DNA from: Candidatus Woesearchaeota archaeon
Lineage (GTDB): Archaea > Nanobdellota > Nanobdellia > Pacearchaeales > GW2011-AR1
Reading direction: 5' to 3'
Assembly: GCA_964534185.1 (NCBI GenBank)
Contig: CAZHOH010000003.1
Location: 1,955 to 65,954, forward strand
Length of the DNA: 64,000 nucleotides
Positions 4,919 to 49,835 of this stretch are shown one piece after another; the stretch's first letter is position 1, and each line of letters begins with the position of its first letter. The notes under the pieces are model-generated. The model was not told the origin of the DNA. It did not search any database and saw only the letters and a program-made list of their open reading frames with translations. A program made the translations under genes and the position numbers.

Positions 4919-5770
4919 ATGATTGAGTTCCTTTTTTTGCTGGGGTTGGTATGGATTGTGTTTGCGATAGCGCAGGATTTCAAAACTCGTGAGGTTGCTA
5001 ACTGGTTGAATTTTTCTTTAGTTCTTTTTGCTTTGGTTTTTAGATTGTTTTATAGTATTTTTTTAAATGATTATCGTTATATTTTATTTGGATTAGCAGG
5101 TTTTGGGATATTTTTTGTGATTGGAAATTTGTTTTATTATGCGCGGCTTTTTGCTGGAGGGGATGCTAAACTGTTGATTGCTTTAGGTGCTGTTATTCCT
5201 GTTGCTAATGATTGGCATAGTAATTTTTTGATATTTTTTGTTTTTACAATGTTTTTGCTTTTGGGGGGAAGTATTTACAGTTTGGTTTATAGTGTTGGTT
5301 TGAGTTTGAAAAATCGTGAGAGGTTTGTTAAGGAATTTAAGAGGGAGTTTGGCAGGAATAAAAGGTATTTTTATTTTGCACTTGTGTTTTTGTTTTTGTT
5401 TGCAATTGTTTCTATTGTTATTGGGCAGATTGTTTTTTTGGTTGTCAGTTTGTTGATTTTGTTGTTTCCTTTGCTTTATATTTATACAAAGGCAGTTGAG
5501 AGTGCGTGTTTAATGGTTTATGTTTCTCCTAAAAATTTGAGTGTTGGGGATTGGCTGGTTGACAGGATTAAGATTAAAGGGAAGTATATTGAGCCGAATT
5601 GGGAAGGATTAAGTGATGAGCAGTTGGCTTTGATAAAAAAGAATTATAGGAAGAAGGTTTTGGTTAAGCAAGGGATTCCTTTTACCCCTGCGTTTTTGTT
5701 TGCTTTTTTGGTTTTGATTTATATTCAGTACTGGGGATATTCTAACTGGGGATTGTGGGGATATTTTTAA
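4919..5770 (+). CDS. A24-family prepilin/preflagellin peptidase (FlaK/PibD/EppA-like)
   Basis: Both aspartyl motifs are present: AQDFKTREV (first Asp) and FAGGDAKLLIALG (GxGDxKL). Polytopic membrane protein with a C-terminal extension. Confidence 0.75.
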   Translation: MIEFLFLLGLVWIVFAIAQDFKTREVANWLNFSLVLFALVFRLFYSIFLNDYRYILFGLAGFGIFFVIGNLFYYARLFAGGDAKLLIALGAVIPVANDWHSNFLIFFVFTMFLLLGGSIYSLVYSVGLSLKNRERFVKEFKREFGRNKRYFYFALVFLFLFAIVSIVIGQIVFLVVSLLILLFPLLYIYTKAVESACLMVYVSPKNLSVGDWLVDRIKIKGKYIEPNWEGLSDEQLALIKKNYRKKVLVKQGIPFTPAFLFAFLVLIYIQYWGYSNWGLWGYF

Positions 5771-7558: not shown

Positions 7559-7816
7559 ATGAGAGTTTTAGGTTATGTTGTCAGTTTGATTGGAATCGGG
7601 GTTTTGAGTTTGGGGATTGGGCCGATTCATGAATATGCTGTTGCTAATTTTGAAGTTGTTCAGGGTGTTCCTAATTATTATTTTTTTATTGGAGGAGTTG
7701 TTGTTTTGGCGGCTGGAGTGATTTTATTGAGAAAAGGAGTTGATGTTGGAAGAGGGAGTTTTGAGGTTCCTATTTATAGGGGAAATCATATTGTAGGATA
7801 TAGGAGGAATTCATGA
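7559..7816 (+). CDS. small membrane protein
   Basis: Two hydrophobic helices; ATG at 7559 preceded by aaagaggttgag. The track start at 7535 is a TTG. Confidence 0.45.
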   Translation: MRVLGYVVSLIGIGVLSLGIGPIHEYAVANFEVVQGVPNYYFFIGGVVVLAAGVILLRKGVDVGRGSFEVPIYRGNHIVGYRRNS

Positions 7817-8502: not shown

Positions 8503-8545
8503 TTGTAGAAATGTTTATAAATAATGTTTTTTTATTAAAGATAAG

Positions 8546-9247: not shown

Positions 9248-9288
9248 TCTTATGTAAACTTTAAAAAGATTTTATTCTTAATGTTCTT

Positions 9289-9939: not shown

Positions 9940-10526
9940 TATTCTTTTATAGAGTTTGCTTCTATTTTTGATATTTTTCTTAAAGTATTTAGATTTTTCC
10001 CCTCATAATCTGCTTTATCCAACCCTGCTTTTTTCCCAATTATCTTAATTAGTTTGCTGGCACCATAAGATAAAAGGATTACAATTACTATTGAAAATAA
10101 TAATGCTAGTGCAGACCATTCTTTGAATATATTAAAAAAATTTCCTAAGTCTAAGAAGAAGATTGCCATTTGCTTTACTGCTCCGCTAATGGATATTAAC
10201 ATTGTGATTATTACTGCGCTTATCCATCTTGTAATTTTCCCGTTGAGAAAAGGAGTGTATTGCAATATTGAAGCGATTATTAAGATTAGTATTATGAATA
10301 ATGTTGTGAAGATTATTAATGTTGGTAAGGTTAGTTCTGTTTCTATCCTTAATATGTTTGTGGAGAAAAATCTGAATGCATCAGGTATTGTAATCACTTT
10401 ATTGTCTGAAAGGAGATTATTTAGTTTTTTTATTGGTTCTTCACTTTGACTATTGTTTGTAATTTGAGCACTTATTGGAGTAATTAATACAAACAGGAGC
10501 GTAAGGAAGATAATCACTTTTTTCAT
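9936..10526 (-). CDS. signal-peptide polytopic membrane protein
   Basis: Signal peptide ending PISA/Q, multiple TM helices; convergent with the three preceding genes. Confidence 0.55.
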   Translation of the reverse strand: MKKVIIFLTLLFVLITPISAQITNNSQSEEPIKKLNNLLSDNKVITIPDAFRFFSTNILRIETELTLPTLIIFTTLFIILILIIASILQYTPFLNGKITRWISAVIITMLISISGAVKQMAIFFLDLGNFFNIFKEWSALALLFSIVIVILLSYGASKLIKIIGKKAGLDKADYEGKNLNTLRKISKIEANSIKEY

Positions 10527-11721: not shown

Positions 11722-12114
11722 TTATTCTGATTTTTCTAGAATTAGTTTGGTTATTCTTTCAAAATGGTTTGTATTCTTAGTTATTAATTTCTTTTTATTT
11801 GTAATTGCTATCGAAGCAATCATAATGTCTGCAAGATCTATTGATTCTCCTTTTGATTTTAATTCTTCGAATATTTCTGCTGCTTTTTTTGAGGATTCAA
11901 AGTCAAAGTTAAGAATTTGAAAATTGGATAAGAATTCCTTAACTTTTGAAATATCCATTTTTGATGATTTTGGAATTCCTTTGAGGAGTTCAAAAGAATT
12001 AATTGGGGTTGTCGATAATTTTATTCCCTGTTCTTTTAATTTTTGAAATAATTGGATTGTTTTTTGTTCATTTCTAAGGAAGTTTATCAGTATATCTGAG
12101 TCTAGGCAGACCAT
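11722..12114 (-). CDS. vapC: PIN-domain toxin (VapC-like)
   Basis: N-terminal LDSDILINFL with acidic residues spaced as in PIN domains (ADIMIASIA...TKNTNHF); start abuts a small upstream partner gene. Confidence 0.65.
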   Translation of the reverse strand: MVCLDSDILINFLRNEQKTIQLFQKLKEQGIKLSTTPINSFELLKGIPKSSKMDISKVKEFLSNFQILNFDFESSKKAAEIFEELKSKGESIDLADIMIASIAITNKKKLITKNTNHFERITKLILEKSE

Positions 12115-12366: not shown

Positions 12367-12768
12367 TTAGAAAATTGTTAATATTTGTTTTGTGTTGAAA
12401 ACGACAACTTTGTTTTGGGTTTTTAGATGAGAATCATTACTCCAAATTGCACATTTTTCTTTTATTGCTAGAGCAAGAGATGGTGCATCATCTTTGTCAG
12501 GAGTGAGAGTTATTGCTTCTTTTAAATTATCTTTATAATAATTAAATTCGATAAATATTATTTTGCTAAATATCTTTTGTTTTCTTTTATTAAATTCTTT
12601 TTTATTTAATTTTGATTTGGTTAAACATTCTTTTTGATGTTTGTTGAATTCTTCTATTATGAATTTTGGAGCGAGGAATATGAATTTTATTGAATGAAAT
12701 ATTTGAGAGTTTGTTGAATTGGGATTCATTAATGAAAAGAGAATGTTGTTATCAATTATTATGTTCAT
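12367..12768 (-). CDS. PIN-domain protein (second toxin candidate)
   Basis: MNIIIDNNILFSLMN... and C-terminal DDAPSLALAIKEKCAIWSNDSHL resemble a PIN-family nuclease; overlaps a small upstream ORF by 17 nt. Confidence 0.5.
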   Translation of the reverse strand: MNIIIDNNILFSLMNPNSTNSQIFHSIKFIFLAPKFIIEEFNKHQKECLTKSKLNKKEFNKRKQKIFSKIIFIEFNYYKDNLKEAITLTPDKDDAPSLALAIKEKCAIWSNDSHLKTQNKVVVFNTKQILTIF

Positions 12769-32854: not shown

Positions 32855-32945
32855 GCCTCCATAGCTCAGTGGTCAGAGCGGCTGCCTTGTAGTTCAGAAG
32901 GAACAAGTGAGCAGTAGGTCGAGGGTTCGACTCCCTCTGGAGGCT
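32855..32945 (+). tRNA. tRNA-Thr (anticodon UGU) with 18-nt intron at 37/38
   Basis: GCCTCCA acceptor, D arm GCTC-AGTGGTCA-GAGC, anticodon stem GCTGC/GCAGT, loop CTTGTA + intron 32892-32909 (GTTCAGAAGGAACAAGTG) + A. The intron ACAAG pairs with CTTGT, compatible with a bulge-helix-bulge site. Confidence 0.85.
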
Positions 32946-37062: not shown

Positions 37063-37197
37063 TATAAAAAGAACCTAGGTTCTTCTTATCAACATTTCCT
37101 AAAAATGCTGAAAGAATTTCAGTTCATTATTTATTGTATAATTGGACTTGTTTCTTGGTTTAAAAAGGTTTTTATATTATGGTCCGGTAGTTATTCT

Positions 37198-37473
37198 ATG
37201 AGAGTTCGGTTTTTGCGTAAAGGAGAGCAGAGGAAATTTATCGAGGATGTTTTGAAAAGAACTAATTGTCCTTCTTTGAGAGCTTTTGAGCAGTTTGGTT
37301 TTGGGATTAATTATTCTACTATGAAGAATTATTTTTCAGAAGTTTATCTTTTGCCAAAGGATTTGTTTGATAAAATGTGTTATATTGCGCGGGTTGATGG
37401 TGGGGATTTAAAGGTGGAATTTGTGGAGGATAATTGGGGGCGGGTGAGTGGGGGAAAGAAAAGTCGGAAGTGA
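37198..37473 (+). CDS. small hypothetical protein upstream of giant locus
   Basis: ATG 37198 is about 23 nt downstream of tttatatta. MRVRFLRKGEQRKFIEDVLKRTNCPSLRAFEQFG... The track's longer form overlaps the L44e start and is rejected. Confidence 0.45.
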   Translation: MRVRFLRKGEQRKFIEDVLKRTNCPSLRAFEQFGFGINYSTMKNYFSEVYLLPKDLFDKMCYIARVDGGDLKVEFVEDNWGRVSGGKKSRK

Positions 37474-37496
37474 AAATATTTTTTATCCCAATAACA

Positions 37497-37504
37497 TTTA
37501 TATA
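37497..37504 (+). promoter_or_regulatory. TATA box for the giant locus operon
   Basis: tttatata centred about 25 nt upstream of ATG 37526. Confidence 0.5.
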
Positions 37505-37525
37505 CGAGAAATCTTTGTTTGTTTT

Positions 37526-39406
37526 ATGTTTAATAAGAGAGGGCAGATAACTTTATTTGTAATAATAGCAATAGTGATTGTTGCAGGAATTGTTATTGCT
37601 TTTGCTGTGTGGCAAGGGTGGGTTTTTTCTGGGGGTGGAAGTGAATTTGGCGAGGTTTATGATTTTTTTGATAGTTGTGTTGAAACTAAGGTTATGCAAG
37701 GATTGAAAATTGCAGGAAGTCAGGCAGGTTATATTGAAGTGCCTGAGTTTTCTCCTGGAAGTGAGTATGCCCCTTTTTCATCTCAGTTAGATTTTCTTGG
37801 AAATCCTGTTCCTTATTGGTATTATGTTTCTGGTAATGGGGTTGTTAAAGAGCAGGTTCCTTCAAAGACAAGTATTGAAAGGCAGTTGGAAGATTATTTG
37901 GATGAGCAGTTGGAAAATTGTGATTTTTCTTCTTTTAGAGAGGGTGGGAGGGATATTGATTCTGATGCGCCTAGCAGTGATGTTCGGATTTTGGATTCTG
38001 AAGTTAGAGTGAGGGTTGATATGGATTTGGGAGTTATTCAGGGAGAGGATGCTGAGTTAAGAAGAAGTCATGAGGTGAGTGTTGATAGTGATTTTGGTGA
38101 GATGTATGGTATTGCTGTTGAGATTTATGAAAAAGAGGTTGAGGATGCGTTTTTGGAAAATTATGCTATTGATGTGATGTATAATTATGCTCCTGTTACT
38201 GGGAGTGAGCTGAGTTGCAGGCCTTTGACTTGGAATCCTGAAGAGGTTGTTAGTGAGATTAAGGGTGGTTTGAGTGCTAATACTGGTTTTTTGAAAACTG
38301 AGGGAAATTATTATTCTATTGAAAATAAGGAGGAGGAGTATTTTGTTGTTGAGGGGTTGAGTTCTGATATTCCTGTTAATTTTATGTATAATCCGAGCTG
38401 GCCGACGAGAGTTGAGGTTTGGCCTGCTGAAAATGGTTTGCTTGTTGCTGAGCCTGTTGGTTTGGATGAAGGTTTGGGGATTTTAGGTTTTTGTTATGTG
38501 CCTTATCATTTTGTTTATGATATTTACTATCCTACTTTGATTCAGGTGAATAATGGCGAGGAGTTGTTTCAGTTCCCGGTTGCAGTTGTTATTGATAATA
38601 GTGTTCCTAGAGAAGCTATTGCAAGTGTAGGCATTCAGCAAGAGCCTTTGGAGGAGTTGTGTAATTATAGAAATACAGAGTTTGACGTTTATACTTATGA
38701 TAATCAGTTGAGAGATATTGAGGCAGATGTTGATTTTATTTGTTTGAATCAGAGGTGTAATATGGGGAGTACTAGTGTTTCTGGAAGTGATGCTGTTCTT
38801 TCTGTAGAGTTTCCACAGTGTGTGAATGGAAGAGTTGTTGCAAGAGCTGAAGGGTATGTTCCTGGTGAGAAATTTGTTTCAACTAATTCTGAGGGAAGTA
38901 CTGAGATTATTTTGGATAGATTGTATGAAATGGATTTGGAGGTTGTTGTAGGTGGTTTGGATTTGGTTGATAGGGGAGAGGGAGGAGTTGGAGTTATTAC
39001 TTTTGAAAGTGAGAAATATCGGACAAGTGTTGCTTATCCTGAGCAGGAAAGTGTTGAGTTAGCTGAAGGATTGTATAATATTTCTGTTCGAGTTTTTTCA
39101 GGAAGTGATTTGAGGATTCCTGCGAGTTCTCGTCGTGAGTGTGTAGAGGTTCCTGTTGCTGGTTTGTTTGGTGCTTTTGGACAGACAACTGAAGAGTGTT
39201 TTAATGTTGATATTTCTGCGCAGACTTTGGATAATGCTTTGAGTGCTGGTGGAAAGAGAGTTGAGTTTGTTTTAGAAGATGACTTGAGGAATTCGAATAG
39301 TGTGAGGTTGAGTGTTGATTTGTTGCCATCTCCGACGAGTTTGCAGCAGTTGCAACAGAATTTTGAATTAGTTGAAAATCAAAATCTTGGAGTTACCTTT
39401 GAATGA
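37526..39406 (+). CDS. large prepilin-like (class III signal peptide) surface protein, 626 aa
   Basis: MFNKRGQ/ITLFVIIAIVIVAGIVIAFAV. The N-domain (CVETKVMQGLKIAGSQAGYIEVPE) is paralogous to the 45163 gene. The C-terminal part has beta-rich, carboxypeptidase-regulatory-like stretches. Confidence 0.65.
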   Translation: MFNKRGQITLFVIIAIVIVAGIVIAFAVWQGWVFSGGGSEFGEVYDFFDSCVETKVMQGLKIAGSQAGYIEVPEFSPGSEYAPFSSQLDFLGNPVPYWYYVSGNGVVKEQVPSKTSIERQLEDYLDEQLENCDFSSFREGGRDIDSDAPSSDVRILDSEVRVRVDMDLGVIQGEDAELRRSHEVSVDSDFGEMYGIAVEIYEKEVEDAFLENYAIDVMYNYAPVTGSELSCRPLTWNPEEVVSEIKGGLSANTGFLKTEGNYYSIENKEEEYFVVEGLSSDIPVNFMYNPSWPTRVEVWPAENGLLVAEPVGLDEGLGILGFCYVPYHFVYDIYYPTLIQVNNGEELFQFPVAVVIDNSVPREAIASVGIQQEPLEELCNYRNTEFDVYTYDNQLRDIEADVDFICLNQRCNMGSTSVSGSDAVLSVEFPQCVNGRVVARAEGYVPGEKFVSTNSEGSTEIILDRLYEMDLEVVVGGLDLVDRGEGGVGVITFESEKYRTSVAYPEQESVELAEGLYNISVRVFSGSDLRIPASSRRECVEVPVAGLFGAFGQTTEECFNVDISAQTLDNALSAGGKRVEFVLEDDLRNSNSVRLSVDLLPSPTSLQQLQQNFELVENQNLGVTFE

Positions 39407-42400
39407 GAAGAGGGATTTTTGTTTTAGTGTTTTTGATTTTTTTAATTGGAATTGTTAGTGGACAGACTTTTGAAGGTGAGACTCAGAGTCCTGTTTTTGA
39501 GGGTAGTAGAGGAGGGGAGTTTTCTGGAAGTTATGTTTCTTCAAATCCTCAGTATGGAAGTCCTGGTTATACAGGTGTTGGTTTTGATTATAGTGAACAT
39601 AGAGAGGTTTGTCGTGAGAGGCAGGATTTTGTGATACAGGTTGCGCCTGGAGGTTGTTCTCCTGGTGTTGTGAGAAGTGATTTGCTTGCTGAACAGGATG
39701 TTCCTGTTTTTTGTCAGTTGCAGGCGACTATGATTAATCCGACTATTGAAGCTGAGAGGATTAGGGGAATGAGGTTGACTACTCAAGGGCAGAGTCCTGA
39801 AGGTGTTGCAGGGATTTCTTATTATCCTCCTAAGGTTGCTTTGAGACCTAATTCAAGAAGTCAGGGTTTTCCGTCGATAGATAATGTTGGTTATGCTGTT
39901 ATTGTTTTGAATCAAAATCCTGATGAGAGTTCGATGCCTGAATTTGTGTCTGGGAATTTGACTGCAAGAATTGATTATGATGTTCCTTATGGTACAGGGT
40001 TAGGTTTGACTGAGAAAGTTATGCCTGTGTTGAGTGATGAAGAGTGGCAATTGAGGTATAAAGAGTTTGCATTTATGGATGGCAAGGGTTATTTGAGGGT
40101 TGAAGGAATTACAAGTGATAGTGTTCGGATTGGAGTTTATACTGATGTTAATCGTAGGTATGATTCTTTTGTTGTTCGGCGGGGAGGGAGTTCTGGTGAG
40201 AGTTATCTTCCTGGTTTTTACTGCAATGCTGCTTATAGTGTTAGAGTGAGAGATGTTGTTGGGCCGAGGACAAAAGCTGTTATTGAAATTGATAATAATG
40301 AGTTTGAAGGTTATAGGGGTTCGAAGTTTGAAGATGGTTTGAATTGCAGGGTGTTGAATGTTGAAAGTGGGGGGGCTGGGACAGGAAGTGTTAGTTTAAG
40401 TTGTAATGGTAAAAGGGTTGAGCTTAGTTTAGAAAGGAAGGATGTTCAGTTAGAAGTTGAAGGAGTTGTTGGTGAGTTTTCTGTTGGTGATAAAGTTATT
40501 GAAGACCACGATATTTATTTAGGATATAATGGTGTGACTAGGGAAGGTGAAAGTTTTGTTGTTTTAGTTGAGACTGATAATCTTGGGAAGGTTCAGAAAG
40601 AGGTTAATGGTTTTGGGGAGGAGGTTTCTGGAATTAACGATTTGAGTTTAGTTCAGAGTCAGGTTGGTGAGGAATACAATGCTGTTGTTTTATTTGAAGG
40701 AAGTAGTGGGGAGGTTTTTGGTGTTGGTGTTGGAGGTTCTGTTGTTTTAGAAGATAATTATGTTTCTCAGGATTTTCAATTGAATTTTGACGAGGCTGTT
40801 GATACTTATAGATTTGTTAAGAGTGATTATGGGGATTATGAGTATGAGAGGGATTTGATTTATGGGAAGAAGGCTTTGGATGATGCTATTAAGTTATCTT
40901 CTGAAACTGGGCAGTCTTTGACTTTGGATGAGTTGTATGGTGAGTATATTGAGAGCTATGGTTCTTATGCTGGGAATGAGTTAAGTGTTGCTCGGAATTT
41001 TGATACAAGTAATGCTGTTGCGAGTATTAAAGTTGATGGGTATACTCATAATATAAGGTTGAAAGAAATTAGAGAGCCTGATGTTGAAGATAGTAGTGTT
41101 GAGTTTGTTTTGAATAATGAAGTTATTACTTTAGATAAAGAGGATGAGTATTTGATTTCTCCTACTGATAGTGAAGATGGAGATATTATTCAGATGAGAG
41201 AGTTTGGAGAGGATTATGTTTGGTTAGTTGGGGATTGTGAAGGTGATGAAGATAATTTTAGTGAGAGAGTTGGACTAGGTAGAAGTGTTAGTGTTTGTGG
41301 GAATGATGTTTTTGTTAGAGATATTAATTTTAGGCAAGAGGCAGTGATTAGAGTTGATCCTGTGAATAAACATGTTGGAAGTACTGTCAATATTAGTTAT
41401 TCTGTTGGTATTGAGCAGAGAGCGATTCAGTTGTCTCCTGAAAAATCTGTTGCAAGGATTGAAAGATTGAATCAGAGTATTGAGCAGTGGAATAATATTA
41501 ATGAAGGTTTAGGGAAAGTTGTTGAAGGTATGAAGGCGGCTTGTTTTGCAACAAGTGCTGCTTTGCAGGTTAAGAATTTGTTAGGAGGTTTGGCAGGAGA
41601 GGCGATTGCAAGGCAGGAAGTTATGAGGGGGGAGGATGGGTGGAATCAGCTTTGTTCTGAAGCAATGGCTAATGATGGTGTTACAACTGAAAGACTTGAA
41701 AATTTGGGATTGAAGCCTGGGACTTATCAGAGTTTGGATGATTGCTTTAGGCAGAATGCAGAGGCTATTAATTCTGATGTTAATTTTTATACTGATTTGA
41801 TTCAGGAGCATGATGGGAATATTAAGTCGCGTGAAGAGGCAGCTGGTGCTGTTGTTGAGAGTGGTTTGTTTGGAAGTTCTGTTGATACTCAAAGAGCTTT
41901 GAGTTCGCATTTGAGGGAGGTTAAACAAAGGTATAGTGAGGAGGGGGAGCTGAGAGTTGCTGATGCAAAAGGTGTTGAAAAGTCGATTAATGTTGGAGAG
42001 GTTGTTGAAAGTTTGAATGAGGATTTTGTTAATGTTAATGATGTTACAAAAGTTGAGTTGTTGTTAAGGGTTAGGAATAGTGATGCAAATGAAAGGTTGA
42101 AGACGATGGCTGAGAAAGAGTTGTATGGTGAGTTGGAGAGGTTGCAGGAGTATGCTAGGATTAGTGAAGGTAGTCTGGCTGACGAGGTTATTAGAGCTGC
42201 AGGACTGCCTGTTTCTCAGATTGGAATTCATAGTCAGGGCAGGACAACTGATTTTGGTGTTGAGCTTCCTTCTGCTGTTTATTCTGGAAGTAAATTGAAT
42301 TCTGAATGGAAGGGTTTGGAAAGCAATACACCTGTTGAGATTGTTGTTTTAAATGGTGAGAGATATATTGTTAGTCTGCAGGATTATGGTGGGACAAATC

Positions 42401-45126
42401 CTCAGCAAAAGTTTGCTATTGATAGGGTGTTTGATGATGGTGGGATAGAGGTTACTAATGAAGTTAAGGAGCAGATTACTGATGCTTATGGAAGTTATTT
42501 TGTGAAGTTGGATGGTAGTTCTTATAGTAATCCTTATCAGAATCCTGAAGTTCGTTATCATGAGAAAGAGCCTTACAAAGGGATGCCTGCGCTTGTGCCT
42601 TTGGATGTTAGGGATGGATGGTATGCTGGGACTCGTCCTACTATTCCTGCTTTTGGTGAGATAAAGGCGTTTCAAGATAGTGGGATGGTTGCGAGTTTTT
42701 GGTTATGTAATGTTGGGGCGAATGGGCGTGAGGAATTTGAAGGGGGGTTGGGTGATGATATTTGTCAGCAGTTTAATGTTAATACTGGACAGGCTTTGGA
42801 TATTTTTCCTGGACTTCCTCAGGGAGAGGCGAGGCTTTTAGTTGATCAGGCAAGGAAAGCGATTGAAGAGTCTGCGAGCCAGTATGGTTCTGGTGTGAGG
42901 AGGATTAGTATTTTAGGAAGGAATTATAATGTTGGAAATCCTGCGAGTTCTGCACCTGGAACAAGTTGTACTGATTTTATGTCACCTGGCGATTGTCAGA
43001 TTTTGTTTAATACATGTGATCCTGTGATTTGTCCTAGTTCAAGATGTAACCTTGGAGGAAAATATTATGTTGATGATGTTGTTCAGACTGGAATTGTTGG
43101 GGGTGTTTTTATGTGTTTGCCGAATGCAAAAGAAGGAATTGCTATTCCTGTTTGTTTGACTGGAGTTCATGCGGGTGTTGACAATTTTGTTTCTATTTTA
43201 GAAGCTTCGCGAGATTGTTTGCAGGAGAATGTTGAGAGTGGAAGGTATGTTGGAATTTGTGATGAGATAACTGCAATTTATCAGTGTGAGTTTTTCTGGA
43301 GACAGGTTTCTCCTTTGATGAATACTATTTTGCCGAAGCTGTTAGAGAGTGTGACTGGGGGCGGGGTTAGAGGAGGGGGAGAGTATGCAAGTGTTTCTGC
43401 TGCTTGGGGTAATATGCAGAATTCAATTGATTTTTTTAAGAATGAGTATAGTGTGAATGCTTTGAAAGCATTTAATGCGCGTTCTACTGAAGAGGCAGGG
43501 ACTCAAATTTGCAAAGGATTTGTTTCTTTGAAGTATGCTAATGAGTTTAAGACTTTAATTGAGCCTGATTCGCCTGCGCAGTTTTCTGCCTGGTTTGATG
43601 AGATTCCTCAGACAGATGCAACTGTGCCTGCTCGTTCGCAGTATAAAGTTTATTATCATATTTTTGCTGGTAATGATAGAGGAGCTTATTATAGTGTTTA
43701 TTTGAAGAATTCTCCTGGGACTTCGTTTTTCCAAGAGAGTGGAAGGTTTATTGTTAATACTGGTTATATTGGAAAGGGAGAGTATGTTGATGAGGCGCGG
43801 GATTTTGTTGCAGCTTCTGGTTTTCAGGAGTTGTGTGTTCGGGTTAATGAACAGGAAGAGTGCGGGTTTCAGAAAGTTACGACTTCGTTTGCTTTGAATT
43901 ATTTGGCTGATAAGTATGTTGAAGAGCAGGCGACGAATACCCAGATTACTAGTGAGGGGCAGTGTGTTTCAGGGACTCCGAGTGCTTTGCCTTTGGTTAA
44001 TCCTAATTTACAGTCTGGTGTTGAGGAAGCTGTTAATCCGCAGATTTATGCTCGTGGAATTATTAGGATTTGTGCTACTGATAATCCTGGGTTGAATACT
44101 GAGCCTGATAGATGGCAGGATGTTGGTTATTGTGGGGAGCAAAAAATAAGATGTTGGATTGATAGAGAGTCTGTTTCAAATGCAATTACTGACGGACATG
44201 TTGGGGCTGTGGATAAAACTTTGGAAGAATTGGATCAGGCAGTGTTTAATGAAGTTGTTTCTGATAAGATTACTTTGTGGGATAATACTAGAGTGGCTAC
44301 TGAATTGTTTAAGGAGATAAGAGATGCTGAGGGTGAGGAAAGATTGAAGTTGATTAGAGATGCTTATGAGAAGTATATTTTGAGTGATGTTCAGCAGGCA
44401 GAGATTGAGTATTTGAGGGCGGGGGCTTTTGATGCTATTGCGTGGGATGAGTATTTGGAAGTTGGTTTGTCAAAGTTGGATGGAGATATTTTGGATGATA
44501 TTGAGAGTGGAAGAGTTGGGGAGGAAGAAGTTGTTGAGGAAGAAGAGGAAAAGGAGGGTGAGGAGGAAGAACTTGCTGAAGAAGTAATTGAATTTTCTCC
44601 TTATTTTAATGTCCAGTTACCTAATGGGCGTATTCTTACTTCAAATGAAGGGGATGAATTTCAAGGAACAACTTTGATTCAGTTAGCAGAGGATAGTGCT
44701 AGAGATTTTAATGTTAATCCTATTTTAATTTTTTCAATAATTCGTCAGGAGAGTAATTGGGATGATGCTGCAACATCTCCTGATGGTGCTAGAGGTTTGA
44801 TGCAAGTTCTACCCTCAACTGCTAATTCAATTAAAGATGGAGAGTGTAGGGCTTATTGTCCAGATGCTAGGGATTATGATTATAGAACTCCTCGAGGAAG
44901 TTTGTATTATGGAACTTGTTATTTAAAATGTATTTATGATAATCAAGTAAAACGGAATGTAGACTTGACTCTTGCAGCGTATAATTGGGGAATTGGAAAT
45001 GTTCAAAATAATTGTGCTGATTCTTTTAATAGTTGTAGAAATGTTCCTTCTGAAACAGCAAATTATGTTCCAGGTGTTAAAGGATATTATGAGCGTTATT
45101 CTGATTCTCTTTCTGTTTCTGCATAA
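39403..45126 (+). CDS. giant secreted protein (1907 aa) with C-terminal family-1 lytic transglycosylase (SLT) domain
   Basis: Sec-type signal peptide MRRGIFVLVFLIFLIGIVSG/Q; ATGA overlap with the upstream gene. Cys-rich central region (~42960-43400); acidic linker (~44515-44585). SLT motifs IIRQESNW (~44740), GLMQV (~44794), AAYNWG (~44977). Confidence 0.8.
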   Translation: MRRGIFVLVFLIFLIGIVSGQTFEGETQSPVFEGSRGGEFSGSYVSSNPQYGSPGYTGVGFDYSEHREVCRERQDFVIQVAPGGCSPGVVRSDLLAEQDVPVFCQLQATMINPTIEAERIRGMRLTTQGQSPEGVAGISYYPPKVALRPNSRSQGFPSIDNVGYAVIVLNQNPDESSMPEFVSGNLTARIDYDVPYGTGLGLTEKVMPVLSDEEWQLRYKEFAFMDGKGYLRVEGITSDSVRIGVYTDVNRRYDSFVVRRGGSSGESYLPGFYCNAAYSVRVRDVVGPRTKAVIEIDNNEFEGYRGSKFEDGLNCRVLNVESGGAGTGSVSLSCNGKRVELSLERKDVQLEVEGVVGEFSVGDKVIEDHDIYLGYNGVTREGESFVVLVETDNLGKVQKEVNGFGEEVSGINDLSLVQSQVGEEYNAVVLFEGSSGEVFGVGVGGSVVLEDNYVSQDFQLNFDEAVDTYRFVKSDYGDYEYERDLIYGKKALDDAIKLSSETGQSLTLDELYGEYIESYGSYAGNELSVARNFDTSNAVASIKVDGYTHNIRLKEIREPDVEDSSVEFVLNNEVITLDKEDEYLISPTDSEDGDIIQMREFGEDYVWLVGDCEGDEDNFSERVGLGRSVSVCGNDVFVRDINFRQEAVIRVDPVNKHVGSTVNISYSVGIEQRAIQLSPEKSVARIERLNQSIEQWNNINEGLGKVVEGMKAACFATSAALQVKNLLGGLAGEAIARQEVMRGEDGWNQLCSEAMANDGVTTERLENLGLKPGTYQSLDDCFRQNAEAINSDVNFYTDLIQEHDGNIKSREEAAGAVVESGLFGSSVDTQRALSSHLREVKQRYSEEGELRVADAKGVEKSINVGEVVESLNEDFVNVNDVTKVELLLRVRNSDANERLKTMAEKELYGELERLQEYARISEGSLADEVIRAAGLPVSQIGIHSQGRTTDFGVELPSAVYSGSKLNSEWKGLESNTPVEIVVLNGERYIVSLQDYGGTNPQQKFAIDRVFDDGGIEVTNEVKEQITDAYGSYFVKLDGSSYSNPYQNPEVRYHEKEPYKGMPALVPLDVRDGWYAGTRPTIPAFGEIKAFQDSGMVASFWLCNVGANGREEFEGGLGDDICQQFNVNTGQALDIFPGLPQGEARLLVDQARKAIEESASQYGSGVRRISILGRNYNVGNPASSAPGTSCTDFMSPGDCQILFNTCDPVICPSSRCNLGGKYYVDDVVQTGIVGGVFMCLPNAKEGIAIPVCLTGVHAGVDNFVSILEASRDCLQENVESGRYVGICDEITAIYQCEFFWRQVSPLMNTILPKLLESVTGGGVRGGGEYASVSAAWGNMQNSIDFFKNEYSVNALKAFNARSTEEAGTQICKGFVSLKYANEFKTLIEPDSPAQFSAWFDEIPQTDATVPARSQYKVYYHIFAGNDRGAYYSVYLKNSPGTSFFQESGRFIVNTGYIGKGEYVDEARDFVAASGFQELCVRVNEQEECGFQKVTTSFALNYLADKYVEEQATNTQITSEGQCVSGTPSALPLVNPNLQSGVEEAVNPQIYARGIIRICATDNPGLNTEPDRWQDVGYCGEQKIRCWIDRESVSNAITDGHVGAVDKTLEELDQAVFNEVVSDKITLWDNTRVATELFKEIRDAEGEERLKLIRDAYEKYILSDVQQAEIEYLRAGAFDAIAWDEYLEVGLSKLDGDILDDIESGRVGEEEVVEEEEEKEGEEEELAEEVIEFSPYFNVQLPNGRILTSNEGDEFQGTTLIQLAEDSARDFNVNPILIFSIIRQESNWDDAATSPDGARGLMQVLPSTANSIKDGECRAYCPDARDYDYRTPRGSLYYGTCYLKCIYDNQVKRNVDLTLAAYNWGIGNVQNNCADSFNSCRNVPSETANYVPGVKGYYERYSDSLSVSA

Positions 45127-45133
45127 CAATTAA

Positions 45134-45141
45134 TTTATATA
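45134..45141 (+). promoter_or_regulatory. internal TATA box upstream of 45163
   Basis: tttatata centred about 25 nt before ATG 45163. Confidence 0.45.
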
Positions 45142-45162
45142 TTTAAAATTCTAAGGTTATAG

Positions 45163-45975
45163 ATGGAAAAAAGAGGAATACGCGCTTTGACTTTTGTTCA
45201 TGGTGGAATTTTTGCTAAATCAAAACGTGCGCAGATAACGATTTTTATTATAATTGCGGTTGTGATTGTTGCTGGAGTGATTTTGGTTTTTAGTTTGAAT
45301 CCGGGGTTGAGGGAGGGGGTTGGTAAGATTTTATCTGGTGAGGTGTTTTATCCTGATGAAGTTGAGAGAATTGATGGAGAGATTGAGGGTTGTGTTTTGC
45401 AGAGTTTGAATTCTACTTTGAGGATTAATAGTATGCAAGGAGGATATTATTATGTTGATGAAGGGGTTTTGGTTGATGCTGAGTTTTTAGAAGATGTTCA
45501 TAGAGTTCCTTATTATTTGGTTGATAGTGAGAGAGATATTCCGAGTGTGAATGTTCTTGAAGATGAGATTAGTTTTGGTGTTGAGAATGAGATTGAAAAG
45601 TGTTGGGTTGATTATGATAGTGTGGGGTTTGATTTTGATGTTTTAGATGCTGAGTCAAAAGTTGGTGAGGGCTTTGTTGATGTTGTTGTTTCTATCCCTG
45701 TTAGTGTGAATTTTGAAGATGAAGTTTATGTTCTTGATGATTTTGAGGCTAAAGTTGAAAGTGATTATAGGAAGTTGTATGGGTTGGCTGTTGAGGCTAC
45801 GAGTATTCAGGCAGTTCGTGATGATATTTGTTTGAGTTGTTTGAATGAGATTGCGAATGAGAATGAGGTTGTTTTTAGGAATCAGGAATTTGAAGATGGA
45901 AGTTATTATATTGTTTATGAAATTCAGGAAATAAATGGCGAGGAGGTTTGGAAGTTTGCACATGTCAGGACGTAA
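45163..45975 (+). CDS. prepilin-like (class III signal peptide) protein, 270 aa
   Basis: ...KSKRAQ/ITIFIIIAVVIVAGVILVF; the N-domain (CVLQSLNSTLRINSMQGGYYYVDE) resembles that of the 37526 gene. Confidence 0.65.
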   Translation: MEKRGIRALTFVHGGIFAKSKRAQITIFIIIAVVIVAGVILVFSLNPGLREGVGKILSGEVFYPDEVERIDGEIEGCVLQSLNSTLRINSMQGGYYYVDEGVLVDAEFLEDVHRVPYYLVDSERDIPSVNVLEDEISFGVENEIEKCWVDYDSVGFDFDVLDAESKVGEGFVDVVVSIPVSVNFEDEVYVLDDFEAKVESDYRKLYGLAVEATSIQAVRDDICLSCLNEIANENEVVFRNQEFEDGSYYIVYEIQEINGEEVWKFAHVRT

Positions 45976-48208
45976 TATTGCAATTGGTTTGATTTTGGTT
46001 TTGTGTATTGGTTTTGTTTCTGCGAGTTTGATTGCTTCTATTGGACAGCAGGGGCTTAGTTTGATTAGTCCAGAGTTGGGAAGTGCTGTTAATACTGTTA
46101 TTTGTGTTTCAAATCCTGCTGTTTGTATTGCTGGGAAGATTACAGGATTTATTCAAAGCAGTATGATTGAAGCTTTGCAGGAAGTTAGTCCTGAGGCGGC
46201 GCAGGTTTTAGGGGCGGTGCAGAAGGTTCATAATCAGGTTAAAAGTATTGTTGATTCTGGCGGGGAGGTTTTAGATGGTTTGCGGATTGATGATGAAAAG
46301 GGAGTTGTTGGAGGGAAGTTAAGTGTTGATGATGTGCAGGATGCGAGTGAGTTAGTTAAAGAAAAAGGTTTGGAAAAATTTGAAATTGGGAAGTCAAGCT
46401 TACTTTTTAATGAGGATGGGAGTTTTAATGTTGAGTTTGACAAAGTTAATAGTTTTGTGAAGTTTACAGATTCTTTAGGGATTGAAAGGAGTTTTGAGAA
46501 TATTTTGTCTAGTAAAGAGGGAGTGCCTGCGTTTTTGAAGTTGAGTGATAAAGGAGAGGTTGTTCAGGCAGATTTTACTACTAATCTTTTGGGAGGGGAG
46601 TATAAACTTGGGGGGAAGGTTTTGAGTCTGCCTGCGAATACAAGATTGCAATATGATAAAAATAAAGGAAAGATTGAATTAGATGTGAAAGATGGGAAAG
46701 TTTCTTTAGATGATTTGGCTAAAGAAGATTTGAAAAGTGATGTTGTTGTTCGAGGGGAAAATGTTGAACTGCCTTCTGGTGAGATGATGAGAGAGGGGGA
46801 AGTTGTTTATGATGAGTTTGGAGGTTATGTTCCGAAAAATACTGAAGTTGTTATTAATGGGAAAACTATTTCTGGAGTTAATGATGTTTATTTGACTGAG
46901 CACGGAAGTAATTATGTTATTTTTGATGGTGATGGGTTTGAAGCTGTTGGGAGTGGTTTTCAAGTTAGTGTAAATCCTTTTTTGAAAGCTGATATTGATT
47001 TGCCTTCGAGAGGTTATTATCGGGTGGGGGATGAAGGGGTTGGAGATATAAATAGGTTTTTGGCTGATTATTATGGGGAGGAGGTTGAAGGAAATTTGAA
47101 CGAGTATAGTGAGTGGACTAAGGATATGATTATTAAGTATCAGAGAGATAATAGTTTGCAAATTGATGGGTTGGTTGGTAAAGAGACTTTGAGTTCGATG
47201 AAAGGTTTTCCTTCTGTTGATTTGCCTTCGAGGGGTTATTTTGATTTAGAGGATGATTTGGATTCTTCTTTTGGGAGGTTTTTGGGGGTTGGAGAGATTT
47301 ATGATAAAAGTGCTCAGCAGACAGTTATGGAATTTCAGGAAAAGTGGAATTCTTTGCATGAAGATGATAAGATTGTTGTTGATGGTTTGTTAGGTGGGGA
47401 GACTTTGTCAAGGATGCAAAGGGCTTATGTTAATGAAGAAATTTTTTCTGAAGAGCAACTATCTGCAAATTTACGGGAGGGTGTTGTTGAGTATGATGGT
47501 TATGCTAATGTTGAAGTTGATGGTAGTGCAGGAATTGATACAGGAAATTATGTTCTTAATTATGTTGAAAATTCTGAAGGGGTTGTGAGTGTTAGCCGTG
47601 AGTATGAGAGTTCTGATGGGAGGATTGGTGCTACGATTAAAGCAGATATTTATGAAACTAAGGTTAATTCACAGGGAATGGATTTTAAGGATAATGGGAG
47701 GGTTTCTATTGATTATGAAAAGGCTAATTATGTAAAGGAAAATTATGCTTGCAAGACTTCTGGAACTTGTGGGAAGAATGTTAGAAGGGGTTTGATTTAT
47801 GGGTTGGATTTAAGTGATGAAGAATTTATTGAAATTCTTGGTAAGGACGGTTCTAAATATGGTTTTCATGCAAAAAATATTGAAGAAAGGGTTGAGATTA
47901 ATGGAGGGAGTATAGGGTTGGATGTTGATGAATCGGTTCCAGGAGATATAGTTCATTTTAGTACAAGCGGGAATGAATATCGTCATGCTGCGATTGTTAT
48001 TAATCCTTCTTCAAGTGGTGAGACTATGATTTATCATCAGTTTGGCAAGAATATTAAGGTTGAAAGTTTGGATACTTTTTTAGGGAAATATAATCGATAT
48101 TATGTTGAGAGTGTTTCGCGTCCTGCTTATTCTAAATTGGATAAGTTTAATCCTAATTTTGATAAAGAGATTTCTGAGGATAGGCTTGTTCTTGCGAGAA
48201 ATGATTAA
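45962..48208 (+). CDS. secreted protein with two peptidoglycan-binding repeats and C-terminal Cys/His (CHAP/NlpC-like) domain
   Basis: Signal peptide MSGRNIAIGLILVLCIGFVSA. PG_binding_1-like repeats (KYQRDNSLQIDGLVGKETLSSM ~47030-47200; VMEFQEKWNSL..VVDGLLGGETLSRM ~47260-47425), each preceded by DLPSRGY. C-terminal SGTCGKNVRRG ... GDIVHF...YRHAAIVI. Start could also be 45935. Confidence 0.65.
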   Translation: MSGRNIAIGLILVLCIGFVSASLIASIGQQGLSLISPELGSAVNTVICVSNPAVCIAGKITGFIQSSMIEALQEVSPEAAQVLGAVQKVHNQVKSIVDSGGEVLDGLRIDDEKGVVGGKLSVDDVQDASELVKEKGLEKFEIGKSSLLFNEDGSFNVEFDKVNSFVKFTDSLGIERSFENILSSKEGVPAFLKLSDKGEVVQADFTTNLLGGEYKLGGKVLSLPANTRLQYDKNKGKIELDVKDGKVSLDDLAKEDLKSDVVVRGENVELPSGEMMREGEVVYDEFGGYVPKNTEVVINGKTISGVNDVYLTEHGSNYVIFDGDGFEAVGSGFQVSVNPFLKADIDLPSRGYYRVGDEGVGDINRFLADYYGEEVEGNLNEYSEWTKDMIIKYQRDNSLQIDGLVGKETLSSMKGFPSVDLPSRGYFDLEDDLDSSFGRFLGVGEIYDKSAQQTVMEFQEKWNSLHEDDKIVVDGLLGGETLSRMQRAYVNEEIFSEEQLSANLREGVVEYDGYANVEVDGSAGIDTGNYVLNYVENSEGVVSVSREYESSDGRIGATIKADIYETKVNSQGMDFKDNGRVSIDYEKANYVKENYACKTSGTCGKNVRRGLIYGLDLSDEEFIEILGKDGSKYGFHAKNIEERVEINGGSIGLDVDESVPGDIVHFSTSGNEYRHAAIVINPSSSGETMIYHQFGKNIKVESLDTFLGKYNRYYVESVSRPAYSKLDKFNPNFDKEISEDRLVLARND

Positions 48209-48258
48209 TGCGGGAGAAAGGATTCGAAAAATGATTAATGCGGGAGAGAGGGTTCGAA
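48199..48258. repeat. 2 x 30-bp tandem repeat carrying tRNA 3'-end-like sequence
   Basis: AAATGATTAATGCGGGAGAAAGGATTCGAA / AAATGATTAATGCGGGAGAGAGGGTTCGAA (28/30). Reverse complement reads TTCGAAYCC..TCTCCCGCA, about 17/20 to the tRNA-Leu T-arm/acceptor 3' end. The stop codon of the 748-aa gene lies in unit 1. Confidence 0.8.
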
Positions 48259-48316
48259 TAAAGGACACCAAGGTTTCCTTTCATAAAACCTTCCTTTTTC
48301 ATGTCGAATCCTGTTA

Positions 48317-48400
48317 TGCGAGGGACAGGATTCGAACCTGCGTACTCACTAAGAGACGAGATTTTGAGTCTCGCGCGTTTGACCACTTCGCTACCCTCGC
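48317..48400 (-). tRNA. tRNA-Leu (anticodon CAA), class II
   Basis: GCGAGGG acceptor, anticodon stem CGAGA/TCTCG with loop CTCAAAA, long variable arm, T arm GCAGG-TTCGAAT-CCTGT, CCCTCGC plus A. Confidence 0.85.
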
Positions 48401-48644: not shown

Positions 48645-49316
48645 TTATCTTCTTAGTGCTAGTTTTGAGATAAGCACAAGGATAATTGCGATTGCAACTA
48701 TCAGTATTGCGATTAGTAAGTAGAAAATTATTTGTCCAAGGATTGTTTGTTCTGGTTGTTCTGGTGTGATTGTAAGTCCGCAGATGCCTCTGTATTCTAG
48801 GCTTGTGTGGTTGTTAAGTGTTTTAGTTCTTTGGAGTTGGTTTTTTATACATTTCCATTCTCCGTAAATTGGTGTTCTAAGTTCTTTTTCTCTTTTTTTG
48901 TCTTCTTCATTAAATATTGGTTTGTTATCATCTGTGTCTGATGTGAATGTTACTGATTCTGTTTTTGTTTGGTTTAGTGCTGAGCATGTTACTTTGAGTG
49001 TGTGGCTGCCTTCTTGGACAGAAATTGTTTCTTCGAAGTAATCTTTTAGCCCTAGATTTACTGGTTTTTCGCTGTCGATTTGATAGTAGCATGATGCTTT
49101 TACATTTGTGCTTATTTCAAGAGGTATGTTTTTTGTGTTGTAAGTTTTTGCTTCTGGATTGATTATGTTTATTGTAAGTTCTGGGTTTTTGTCTACTACG
49201 TAAAAATTAACTGATACTGGGCGTGACCAGTCAATGTCTCCAGCTGTTATTGGCTGGATTAGAATTAACATTAGTAAAATTGAGATGATAGCTTTAATTG
49301 CTTTTTTTTGTGCCAT
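48645..49316 (-). CDS. secreted protein with C-terminal membrane anchor
   Basis: N-terminal signal peptide (ILLMLILIQPITAG), beta-rich ectodomain, C-terminal TM plus RR. Confidence 0.5.
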   Translation of the reverse strand: MAQKKAIKAIISILLMLILIQPITAGDIDWSRPVSVNFYVVDKNPELTINIINPEAKTYNTKNIPLEISTNVKASCYYQIDSEKPVNLGLKDYFEETISVQEGSHTLKVTCSALNQTKTESVTFTSDTDDNKPIFNEEDKKREKELRTPIYGEWKCIKNQLQRTKTLNNHTSLEYRGICGLTITPEQPEQTILGQIIFYLLIAILIVAIAIILVLISKLALRR

Positions 49317-49433: not shown

Positions 49434-49835
49434 ATGGAATTAGTTACCCAACAAGAACCTATGGGTTGTGGAATTGCCTGCGTTGCAGTTGCTTTGAATA
49501 AATCTTATCAGTCAACGAAGAAATTATTTGATAATCCTGAATGTGCTTTTACAAGAGGTTATTATTGCAGAGAACTTATTAAAGTTTTGAATACTAAATT
49601 TGATGATTATACTTTTGCAAAAGTTAATAATGAAAATGAAAAATTATTAGGGAAAAATGGAACAATTGTTTTTATTGAGAGAAATAAAAATTATCCTTCA
49701 GGACATTATTTGATTAAAACAAAAAAAGGTTGGATGAACCCTTGGAGTAATTTTCCAGTTATTTCTCCTGCAAGAAGTGGATTTCAGAAAACTTTGCCTG
49801 GAAAAGCACAATGGATAATTTTTAGAAAGAAATAA
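49434..49835 (+). CDS. stand-alone peptidase C39-like (papain-fold) domain protein
   Basis: QQEPMGCGIACVAVAL (Q..CG.AC) and a downstream GHYLI His; 133 aa; A/T-rich codon usage atypical for + strand genes here. Confidence 0.5.
   Translation: MELVTQQEPMGCGIACVAVALNKSYQSTKKLFDNPECAFTRGYYCRELIKVLNTKFDDYTFAKVNNENEKLLGKNGTIVFIERNKNYPSGHYLIKTKKGWMNPWSNFPVISPARSGFQKTLPGKAQWIIFRKK

Follow-up and report, generated by a model that had tools for sequence, protein, structure and literature searches.

A coupled anchor-scaffold gene pair with exchangeable wall-hydrolase tails in Pacearchaeota and Woesearchaeota, a candidate device for breaching bacterial cell walls

Four co-oriented genes, referred to below as (a), (b), (c) and (d), occupy positions 37526-48208 on the + strand of the DNA analysed here, a stretch of contig CAZHOH010000003.1 of a Candidatus Woesearchaeota archaeon that is called the window throughout and comprises 64,000 nucleotides (nt) in all. 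The locus is read as encoding a surface-anchored, contact-dependent device that breaches the bacterial cell wall, that is, as the murein-hydrolase-armed version of a surface module found across the lineage, and this reading is given a probability of roughly 60%. Giant archaeal SLT proteins, and the idea that they are directed against bacterial walls, have been published before. New, as far as is known, are the universal, coupled pair of an anchor and a scaffold protein, the interchangeable wall-hydrolase tips of the scaffold, and the optional second module.

The lengths and overlaps given for the four genes in the first-pass annotation of this DNA are all found in place. Gene (a) (37526..39406, +) encodes 626 amino acids (aa), in which a class III-type signal at the N-terminus is followed by an alpha/beta domain and three beta-sandwich domains. 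Gene (b) (39403..45126, +; 1907 aa) starts within the stop codon region of (a), with a 4-nt overlap (ATGA), and its product begins with a Sec signal, continues with a conserved scaffold and a linker, and ends in an SLT tail. The product of gene (c) (45163..45975, +; 270 aa) is short and paralogous to the N-domain of (a), and it also has a class III-type signal. Gene (d) (45962..48208, +; 748 aa) encodes a signal or anchor and a conserved N-module of about 340 aa, followed by a pair of PG_binding_1 repeats and by a Cys-His domain. Read from its second ATG (45962), (d) overlaps (c) by 14 nt; an alternative upstream ATG at 45935 gives a product of 757 aa, and the residue numbers of the (d) domains below refer to this longer form. 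All four proteins are strongly acidic. In hydropathy profiles, (a) and (c) each have a single hydrophobic helix, at the N-terminus, and (b) has an N-terminal Sec-type signal, no further hydrophobic 19-mer and no anchor.

The tail of (b) is predicted to be a lytic transglycosylase, which would cut the glycan strands of peptidoglycan. The SLT domain (family 1 lytic transglycosylase, GH23; 44692..45018, +) is supported by Pfam, by alignment with Slt70 and by PHROG. Pfam PF01464 matches aa 1764-1872 with E=1.9e-18 and 66.5 bits against a cut-off of 21.3, and the tail alone gives E=1.1e-19 with the same profile. E1783 (codon 44749-44751) aligns with the catalytic E478 of Escherichia coli Slt70, and the motifs IIRQESNW, GLMQV and AAYNWG of (b) correspond to ARQESAW, GLMQI and AAYNAG of that enzyme, so that the SLT assignment made in the first-pass annotation stands. 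The tail also matches PHROG endolysin and lytic tail protein families (E=3e-21 to 2e-16), and scores equally well against these phage families and against bacterial SLTs. It had been suggested that a bacterial donor of the domain might be traced, and the closest bacterial relatives found in a shallow word-index search are 22 matches from assorted bacteria at 29-40% identity; on this comparison, no recent bacterial donor appears nameable.

The rest of (b) is a large conserved scaffold. Its first 1740 aa have hundreds of full-length relatives with 34-50% identity, and conservation is concentrated in three blocks (aa 70-340, 640-790 and 1040-1600). The last of these (42520..44202, +) is the most conserved part of the protein, with a core identity of 49-72%, the motifs CDPVICPSSRCNLGG and RGGGEY, and some 25 invariant Cys among the 36 Cys of the protein. 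Conservation ceases at about aa 1600-1690, and is followed by a variable helical stretch, a low-complexity linker and the tail. In the window the linker at the junction of scaffold and tail is acidic and Glu-rich (44509..44583, +), and in other family members it is rich in Pro and Thr. An AlphaFold2 model of aa 1030-1610, made from an alignment of 39 sequences, has a mean predicted local distance difference test score (pLDDT) of 60, with the most conserved segment modelled as long helices at values below 50. Comparison of this core model with PDB by Foldseek returned generic ApaG/FnIII-like beta-sandwiches alone, at template modelling (TM) scores of about 0.1, and the family profile matched nothing among PDB sequences. 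Outside the SLT domain, (b) has no match in Pfam, NCBIfam, PADLOC or PHROGs. A reading of the locus as a defence system was dropped on similar grounds, as NCBIfam, PADLOC and PHROGs returned only the SLT and peptidoglycan-binding parts.

The conservation of (a) and (b) was followed in 82 related loci, which come from 80 species-representative genomes and two further contigs. In all 82, (a) is followed directly by the (b) core. Of 81 loci, 39 have a 4-nt overlap of the two genes, and in 67 the genes are no more than 30 nt apart. The pair is located between L44e-S3Ae-NDK-GINS and TFIIB, and the ribosomal-protein and TFIIB neighbours are nearly universal. On the contigs of the closest (b) relatives the gene order is SRP54, FtsY, GINS, NDK, S3Ae, L44e, a small ORF (open reading frame), (a), (b), optionally (c) and (d), and TFIIB. 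A relative of (a) is encoded in at least 551 genomes in a scan of one genome per GTDB species, and almost all of these are named Pacearchaeota, Woesearchaeota or Nanoarchaeota. The conserved unit is thus the a-b pair, and the c-d pair is an add-on; the four-gene architecture had been proposed as a unit, and c-d is present in only 6 of these loci.

The same synteny bears on the possibility that the locus is an artefact or a foreign element, either a bacterial-archaeal assembly chimera or a recent integration at the adjacent tRNA-Leu. In favour of such an origin, the G+C content of the locus (0.36-0.41) is slightly above that of the flanks (0.33-0.35), and repeats resembling tRNA 3' ends lie beside tRNA-Leu. 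However, comparable G+C values occur elsewhere in the window, the strand skew shows no break, the nearest bacterial SLTs found are only 29-40% identical, and the PHROG matches are limited to the enzyme and binding domains. Above all, the locus occupies the same chromosomal slot in the 80 species-representative genomes and the two further contigs, and because of this conserved synteny across species representatives it is judged to be vertically inherited, neither an island nor a chimera. The composition break that would have marked a chimera in the first-pass annotation is not seen, and the alternative is practically refuted by the synteny. The flanking genes of the window (L44e, S3Ae, NDK, GINS, TFIIB, FtsY, SRP54, RadA, an RPA-like OB protein and tRNase Z) are archaeal, in agreement with the archaeal origin assumed there.

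Between close relatives, the C-terminal tail of (b) is the part that changes. Tails were compared by Pfam in 57 complete members (56 from related loci, and the window). SLT is the most frequent domain (12/57), followed by Phage_lysozyme2 (4/57), and by Amidase_3, DUF2272 and Peptidase_M15_4 (2/57 each); GH3, Amidase_2 and Glucosaminidase are each found in one of the 57. Together, these eight murein-hydrolase families account for about 40% of the tails. The remaining tails of the 57 have no significant Pfam match, and Pfam likewise gave nothing for ten unannotated tails from the first search and for one whole relative of 2765 aa. All recognised tails of the survey belong to families annotated as wall-active, except for one borderline KIF21A-like match (E about 0.001). 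A few relatives found in a wider search have other domains, namely Trypsin_2, Peptidase_M10 beside SLT, TPM and TSP_3. When the family is clustered by core identity, the hydrolase tails concentrate in two clades. In the clade of the window (58-68% core identity), neighbours with about 60-65% core identity carry a mixture of tail types, and this mixing among closely related cores indicates that the tail domains are swapped. The tail repertoire resembles that of phage tail lysins, which breach walls from outside.

In having a long conserved N-terminal body and a C-terminal effector that varies between close relatives, (b) is similar to the polymorphic toxins (Rhs, CDI, MAF). It differs from them in several respects. 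There is no adjacent immunity gene: (b) is followed by (c) and (d), or by a small membrane protein and TFIIB, and in the loci surveyed no small variable gene downstream of (b) tracks the tail type. An immunity gene would not be needed if the producer has no murein. Moreover, repeats of the Rhs/YD or filamentous haemagglutinin type are absent from (b), orphan tail cassettes were not seen downstream, and the recognisable effectors of (b) are wall hydrolases, not nucleases or deaminases.

A different comparison is offered by the virion-associated peptidoglycan hydrolases of phages and the hydrolases of conjugation systems in monoderm bacteria (PrgK and TraG, with SLT plus CHAP), which are tools for breaching the wall locally. 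The likeness lies in the combination of a glycan cutter (SLT or lysozyme) with a peptide cutter (CHAP, M23 or amidase). In contrast to these, the genes of the locus are chromosomal, vertically inherited and archaeal, they belong to neither a virion nor a secretion machine, and the scaffolds that carry the enzymes have no detectable relatives among phages (PHROG) or in PDB.

The combination of glycan and peptide cutters is seen most clearly where the c-d pair is present. In (d) itself, PG_binding_1 (PF01471) matches aa 367-422 with E=9e-9 and 35.8 bits against a cut-off of 23, and a second copy at about aa 429-496 is detected by internal alignment (z=14.5 against shuffles), which bears out the two repeats predicted earlier (47033..47422, +). 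The C-terminal Cys-His domain (47702..48205, +) is recognised from its invariant Cys and His and by comparison of a profile with PDB, and is probably CHAP/NlpC-P60-like. Its candidate catalytic residues, C612 (47768-47770) and H684 (47984-47986), are invariant in five homologs; C612 lies in a C-G pair, a P-G-D motif precedes H684, and the C-terminal 170 aa are common to a few relatives. With a profile of five sequences, the best match in PDB is the CHAP domain of lysin L2 (E=0.0054), followed by LytN (0.041) and NlpC/P60 proteins (0.6-1), with the His-containing half alone aligned. In Pfam the region is under the thresholds for CHAP (13 bits against 26) and DUF1287 (13.8 against 25). The hydrolase-like module proposed in the first-pass annotation is upheld in its invariant residues, its best match in PDB is marginal, its score is below the Pfam CHAP threshold, and the domain is probably a papain-like wall peptidase or amidase.

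The (d) family comprises 231 representative clusters, among which conservation is limited to the first 340 aa or so. The C-termini vary (PG_binding_1, Peptidase_M23, SLT, DUF4846), and most have no recognised domain. A comparison of the (d) N-module with the (b) family gave a probability of 6.5% in hhalign, and BLASTP of (d) against (b) gave nothing, which indicates no link between the two. The partner (c) is related to (a): in the single pair the paralogy is weak (29% over 213 aa, E=0.001; a common N-terminal domain of about 210 aa), and (c) matches the N-terminus of (a) homologs in about 40 loci of the survey, so that the paralogy proposed earlier is confirmed.

The survey of c-d was confined to the loci gathered for a-b. 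With a hidden Markov model of the (d) N-module, d-like genes are found only in the window and in the related loci L002 (twice), L009, L014, L015 and L081, so that the c-d pair occurs in 6 of 82 related loci besides the window. Every d-like gene found has a c-like gene just before it and is adjacent to a-b, and in five of the six related loci with c-d, (b) has a hydrolase tail. With a c-d module, glycan-cutting and peptide-cutting enzymes tend to be brought together in one locus, and a different bond specificity is added. For example, the window combines the SLT of (b) with the CHAP-like domain of (d), L015 combines SLT with M23, and L009 combines lysozyme with a CHAP-like domain; in L014, the (b) tail has lysozyme and amidase and (d) has lysozyme. 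Two successive c-d pairs follow a-b in L002 (16707-23684), where the first (d) has PG_binding_1, Phage_lysozyme2 and Amidase_3, and the second several PG_binding repeats together with a Cys-His domain of the type seen in the window. A 43-aa fragment of Amidase_3 beyond the stop of (b) in L002 suggests a recent truncation or frameshift of the tail. In the more distant L081 (5717-8579), c-d is upstream of a-b and not downstream, and neither (d) nor the 900-aa tail of (b) has a recognisable domain, which points to the same architecture with effectors of unrecognised type.

The attachment of these proteins to the archaeal cell may be sought in the N-termini of (a) and (c). Protein (a) begins with MFNKRGQ/ITLFVIIAIVIVAG and (c) with KSKRAQ/ITIFIIIAVVIVAG; in (a), the signal and its hydrophobic helix, MFNKRG/QITLFVIIAIVIVAGIVIAFAVW, are encoded at 37526..37609 (+) and are supported by the family motif and by hydropathy. 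Both N-termini have the features of archaeal class III signals, that is, a short basic start, [KR]-[G/A/S] at -2/-1 and then some 20 hydrophobic residues. Euryarchaeal pilin-like proteins likewise combine a small residue at position -1 with Gln at +1. The relatives of (a) number more than 2166, with identities of 43-58% in the best 120, and their N-terminal consensus is M-x-[NS]-K-[RK]-[GSA]-Q-[VI]-T-[IL]-F-[IV]-I-x-A. Of 64 members, 63 have the Q (position +1), 58 the T and 62 the F, and the residues found at -1 are G (35 members), S (15) and A (13). To judge from these sequences, the motif corresponds in form to archaeal class III signals and seems to be conserved far beyond the need of a plain membrane anchor.

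Within the window the class III-type motif is confined to (a) and (c). A gene for a Peptidase_A24 protein (FlaK/PibD-type prepilin peptidase, 283 aa; 4919..5770, +) is also present in the window and is a candidate for the processing enzyme of (a) and (c); Pfam PF01478 matches it with E=1.4e-12 and 48.4 bits against a cut-off of 26.5, and NCBIfam FlaK_Arch with E=3e-13, which is under the cut-off of that model. Since the motif is limited to (a) and (c) and a Peptidase_A24 gene is at hand, it is plausible that both proteins are processed by a prepilin peptidase, and the class III reading of their signals in the first-pass annotation is supported. The peptidase gene lies 32 kb from the locus, between genes for an AI-2E family transporter and a HIT-domain ORF, with a run of unannotated membrane proteins nearby.

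That annotation went further and proposed a pilus-like apparatus. If a true type IV pilus-like fibre were formed, (a) and (c) would act as minor pilins or as pilins of the tip that carry (b) and (d), comparable to PilY1 on bacterial minor pilins. The motif conserved in both the (a) and (c) families and the A24 peptidase gene in the window are in keeping with this, a Sec-exported (b) could ride on pilin-like partners, and type IV pili are reported to drive episymbiosis in Saccharibacteria (PMC9894109). However, the structure model of (a) (pLDDT 82.7) has a helix at residues 5-31, then a helix at 42-65, the alpha/beta domain and the three beta-sandwich domains, with a break at residues 30-38 after the first helix (pLDDT below 50) and about 560 aa of domains beyond the helix at 42-65. 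There is no continuous pilin helix in this model and no type IV pilin match in Foldseek searches of PDB and BFVD, which returned tandem Ig/CnaB-like domains alone at TM scores below 0.2. The (a) family profile matched nothing among all PDB sequences, and no pilin was matched in Pfam or NCBIfam. At 626 aa, (a) far exceeds the known archaeal pilins, and neither an assembly ATPase nor a platform gene is found in the Pfam lists of 10 kb on each side in L001 and L002, or among about 30 ORFs scanned in the window. Archaeal class III signals are also present on surface proteins that do not form pili, for instance the sugar-binding proteins of Sulfolobus. Filament assembly from (a) or (c) thus finds no support, and the pilus alternative is considered rather unlikely.

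The wall-breaching reading starts from what is observed, namely the genes, domains and catalytic motifs, the pairing and synteny of a-b, the polymorphism of the tails and the peptidase gene, and combines them as follows. The a-b pair would serve as a lineage-wide module of Pacearchaeota and Woesearchaeota, translationally coupled and kept at a fixed chromosomal site. Protein (a) would be held in the archaeal membrane by its N-terminal helix, with the class III-type motif probably cleaved by the A24 peptidase. Protein (b) would be exported by Sec and, because it has an N-terminal signal but no anchor while (a) has only its N-terminal helix, would most likely dock on (a). At the distal end of (b), the flexible acidic linker would present an exchangeable effector, which in the window is the predicted lytic transglycosylase. 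The c-d pair would repeat this logic at a smaller scale, with (c) anchoring (d), the peptidoglycan-binding repeats of (d) binding the sacculus, and its probable CHAP/NlpC-P60 peptidase cutting peptide stems or cross-links. Jointly, the proteins may open the sacculus of a bacterial host or prey locally, from outside, at the point of contact.

That the substrate is the murein of a foreign bacterium, as the first-pass annotation proposed, is rated plausible. Self-directed wall remodelling was set aside; no wall-synthesis gene was seen among the ORFs scanned in the window, and such archaea are not known to make murein.

The same secreted enzymes might instead be released freely. In that case (b) and (d) would degrade what remains of the walls of dead bacteria and so provide amino sugars and amino acids. 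In keeping with this, both are secreted proteins that have wall-degrading and wall-binding domains, and Pacearchaeota have been proposed to feed on the peptidoglycan of dead bacteria (PMC11537232). On the other hand, a conserved scaffold of 1600 aa with an obligatory, coupled membrane partner would be odd for a diffusible enzyme, the hydrolase is absent from most family members, and the locus has no genes for the uptake or catabolism of muropeptides. Scavenging by released enzymes is accordingly held to be very unlikely.

The pairing of a membrane protein with a giant secreted one also recalls a two-component S-layer-like envelope, in which (a) would be the membrane stalk and (b) the outer layer, as SlaB and SlaA are in Sulfolobales, and the enzymes would be decorations of the coat. 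SlaA and SlaB are encoded by adjacent genes, and consist of a large anchorless outer protein and a smaller, beta-sandwich-rich, membrane-anchored one. The a-b pair is similar in that it is universal in the lineage, adjacent, co-oriented and coupled, that (a) combines a membrane helix with beta-sandwich domains, that (b) is very large, secreted, acidic and anchorless, and that the enzyme tail is absent from most members. The differences are, however, considerable. The S-layer proteins of archaea are in general fast-diverging and contain little Cys, whereas (a) and the (b) core are highly conserved across many species (43-58% and 49-72%, respectively), with some 25 invariant Cys in the latter. 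No sequence or fold similarity is found, and there is no match to an S-layer protein in PDB by profile or Foldseek. The anchor of (a) is N-terminal and has a prepilin-type motif, while that of SlaB is at the opposite, C-terminal end, and the enzyme tails have no counterpart in SlaA/SlaB. An S-layer-like envelope is for these reasons thought improbable.

Several points weigh against the wall-breaching device itself. No pilin or class III model matched (a) or (c) in Pfam or NCBIfam at E values up to 1. The CHAP assignment of (d), with E=0.005 against PDB and a score below the Pfam cut-off, is marginal. Most members of the (b) family have no recognisable murein hydrolase, and wall attack therefore appears to have been added in some clades, while the family would have another core function; the earlier placing of murein hydrolysis at the centre of the system has to be given up accordingly. 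Murein synthesis was checked within the window, where no Mur gene is found among the ORFs scanned (about 30), and to our knowledge no bacterial partner of this organism has been recorded.

A more far-reaching, tentative idea is given a low probability. The a-b pair could be the core host-interaction machine of Pacearchaeota and Woesearchaeota, in which the helical, Gly/Ala/Val-rich and Cys-rich core of (b) (aa about 1189-1390) would act as a membrane-active pore or fusion module and make a feeding connection after the tail has opened or recognised the surface of the host, the tails setting the host range. Murein-hydrolase tails would then be for bacterial hosts, and unrecognised tails for other surfaces. 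If this were true, the tail type in a genome alone would predict the host of an uncultured DPANN archaeon.

With respect to the literature, the system is not new in all its parts, as the first-pass annotation had held it might be. Giant SLT proteins of Pacearchaeota and Woesearchaeota were described as fam00969 by Castelle et al. 2021 (PMC8204110), within a module of 51 families specific to these two groups, and attachment to the walls of bacterial hosts was proposed; that paper credits earlier observations of such proteins to Castelle 2015 and Rinke 2013. Vigneron et al. 2022 (PMC9723730) reported genes for a 'large lytic murein transglycosylase' in Woesearchaeota and argued for predation, so that the inference of wall targeting is also published. 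The point about large SLT proteins is restated by Zhang et al. 2024 and Kato et al. 2024. In Nanoarchaeota, according to Strock et al. 2025 (PMC12352652), homologs of peptidoglycan hydrolases are particularly prominent and diverse, and the paper reports that bacteria are killed by archaeal hydrolases of this kind.

Protein (b) is placed in fam00969 by the published description, which it resembles in lineage, size class (up to about 3000 aa), predicted extracellular location, SLT domain and proposed wall-targeting role; its relatives are from metagenome-assembled genomes named Pacearchaeota, Nanoarchaeota or Woesearchaeota, and include Pacearchaeota proteins with an SLT annotation. Like the hydrolases of Strock et al., (d) combines peptidoglycan-binding and catalytic domains, but compared with what is described there it has an extra N-module of about 340 aa, is always preceded by the pilin-like (c), and adjoins a-b. 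In the literature searched, the coverage of which was incomplete, neither the a-b pairing, its fixed position, the interchangeable tails, the c-d pair nor the class III-type signals were found, nor was any member of Pacearchaeota or Woesearchaeota in pure co-culture.

The results bear on the question of who hosts Pacearchaeota and Woesearchaeota and how such minimal cells attach and feed. A published protein family becomes a defined genetic module with an anchor partner, a giant scaffold, a swappable tip and sometimes a second, small module. The recognisable tips are nearly all enzymes acting on bacterial walls, of the types used in phage puncture, and this supports bacterial partners for the two clades in which they concentrate. 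The tail type is a marker that can be read from the genome and compared with co-occurrence data, and the SLT tail, the C-terminal domain of (d) and the (a)-(b) interface provide concrete constructs for biochemistry.

Some features at the borders of the genes may be added. A small ORF of 91 aa (37198..37473, +) lies upstream of (a) and is a possible regulator of the a-b unit. It has a counterpart at the equivalent position in 17 related loci (tblastn) and no match in Pfam, NCBIfam or PHROG. A TATA-like TTTATATT (37171-37178, +) is located about 24 nt ahead of its ATG. The TATA-box-like TTTATATA occurs at 37497..37504 (+), with its centre about 25 nt before the ATG of (a), as a putative promoter, and again at 45134..45141 (+), with its centre about 25 nt before the ATG of (c), as a putative separate promoter of c-d. 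By archaeal promoter geometry, the three boxes would fit three leaderless transcription units, namely the 91-aa ORF, a-b and c-d.

The downstream boundary of the locus is a tRNA-Leu(CAA) gene (48317..48400, -). Ahead of it, a tandem 30-bp repeat (AATGATTAATGCGGGAGA...; 48200..48259, +) covers the final codons of (d) together with its stop codon. In each copy there is a 20-mer (TTCGAATCCTTTCTCCCGCA and TTCGAACCCTCTCTCCCGCA) that resembles a tRNA 3' end on the minus strand, with T-loop TTCGAAT, stem and acceptor, and neither 20-mer is identical to any tRNA of the window, including the adjacent tRNA-Leu. The repeat may be a relic of old integration events beside the locus, with no part in its function; it had been described as att-like debris, and together with the tRNA gene would suggest an island, to which the vertical inheritance shown by the conserved synteny is opposed.

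Between the locus and TFIIB, a 223-aa protein (48645-49316, -) has an N-terminal signal, a C-terminal membrane helix and a weak Lectin_like match (E=7e-4, below cut-off). Its relatives hold the same slot in about 12 other loci, so that the protein may be part of the neighbourhood of surface genes. A 133-aa ORF between the lectin-like gene and TFIIB (49434-49835, +) starts with MELVTQQEPMGCGIACVAVAL, which by eye is similar to the surroundings of the active site in C39-type cysteine peptidases; no match is found in Pfam, NCBIfam or PHROGs.

Further observations concern the window at large. The GC skew of the + strand is positive throughout, with values of 0.4-0.6 over genes on the + strand and 0.0-0.3 over those on the - strand, and the cumulative skew climbs monotonically across the 64 kb, which amounts to an unusually strong bias of G over C. 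Four consecutive ORFs of about 200-230 aa at 7813-10526 (three + and one -) have no Pfam match; each has an N-terminal signal-like segment and several hydrophobic segments, and they look like a small family of multi-pass membrane proteins. Two ORFs of 130 and 133 aa (11722-12114 and 12367-12768, both -) have N-termini that by eye resemble PIN domains of the VapC type. A tRNA of 91 nt (32855-32945, +) is reported by ARAGORN with an unresolved four-base anticodon (tgta), and may contain an intron in the anticodon loop.

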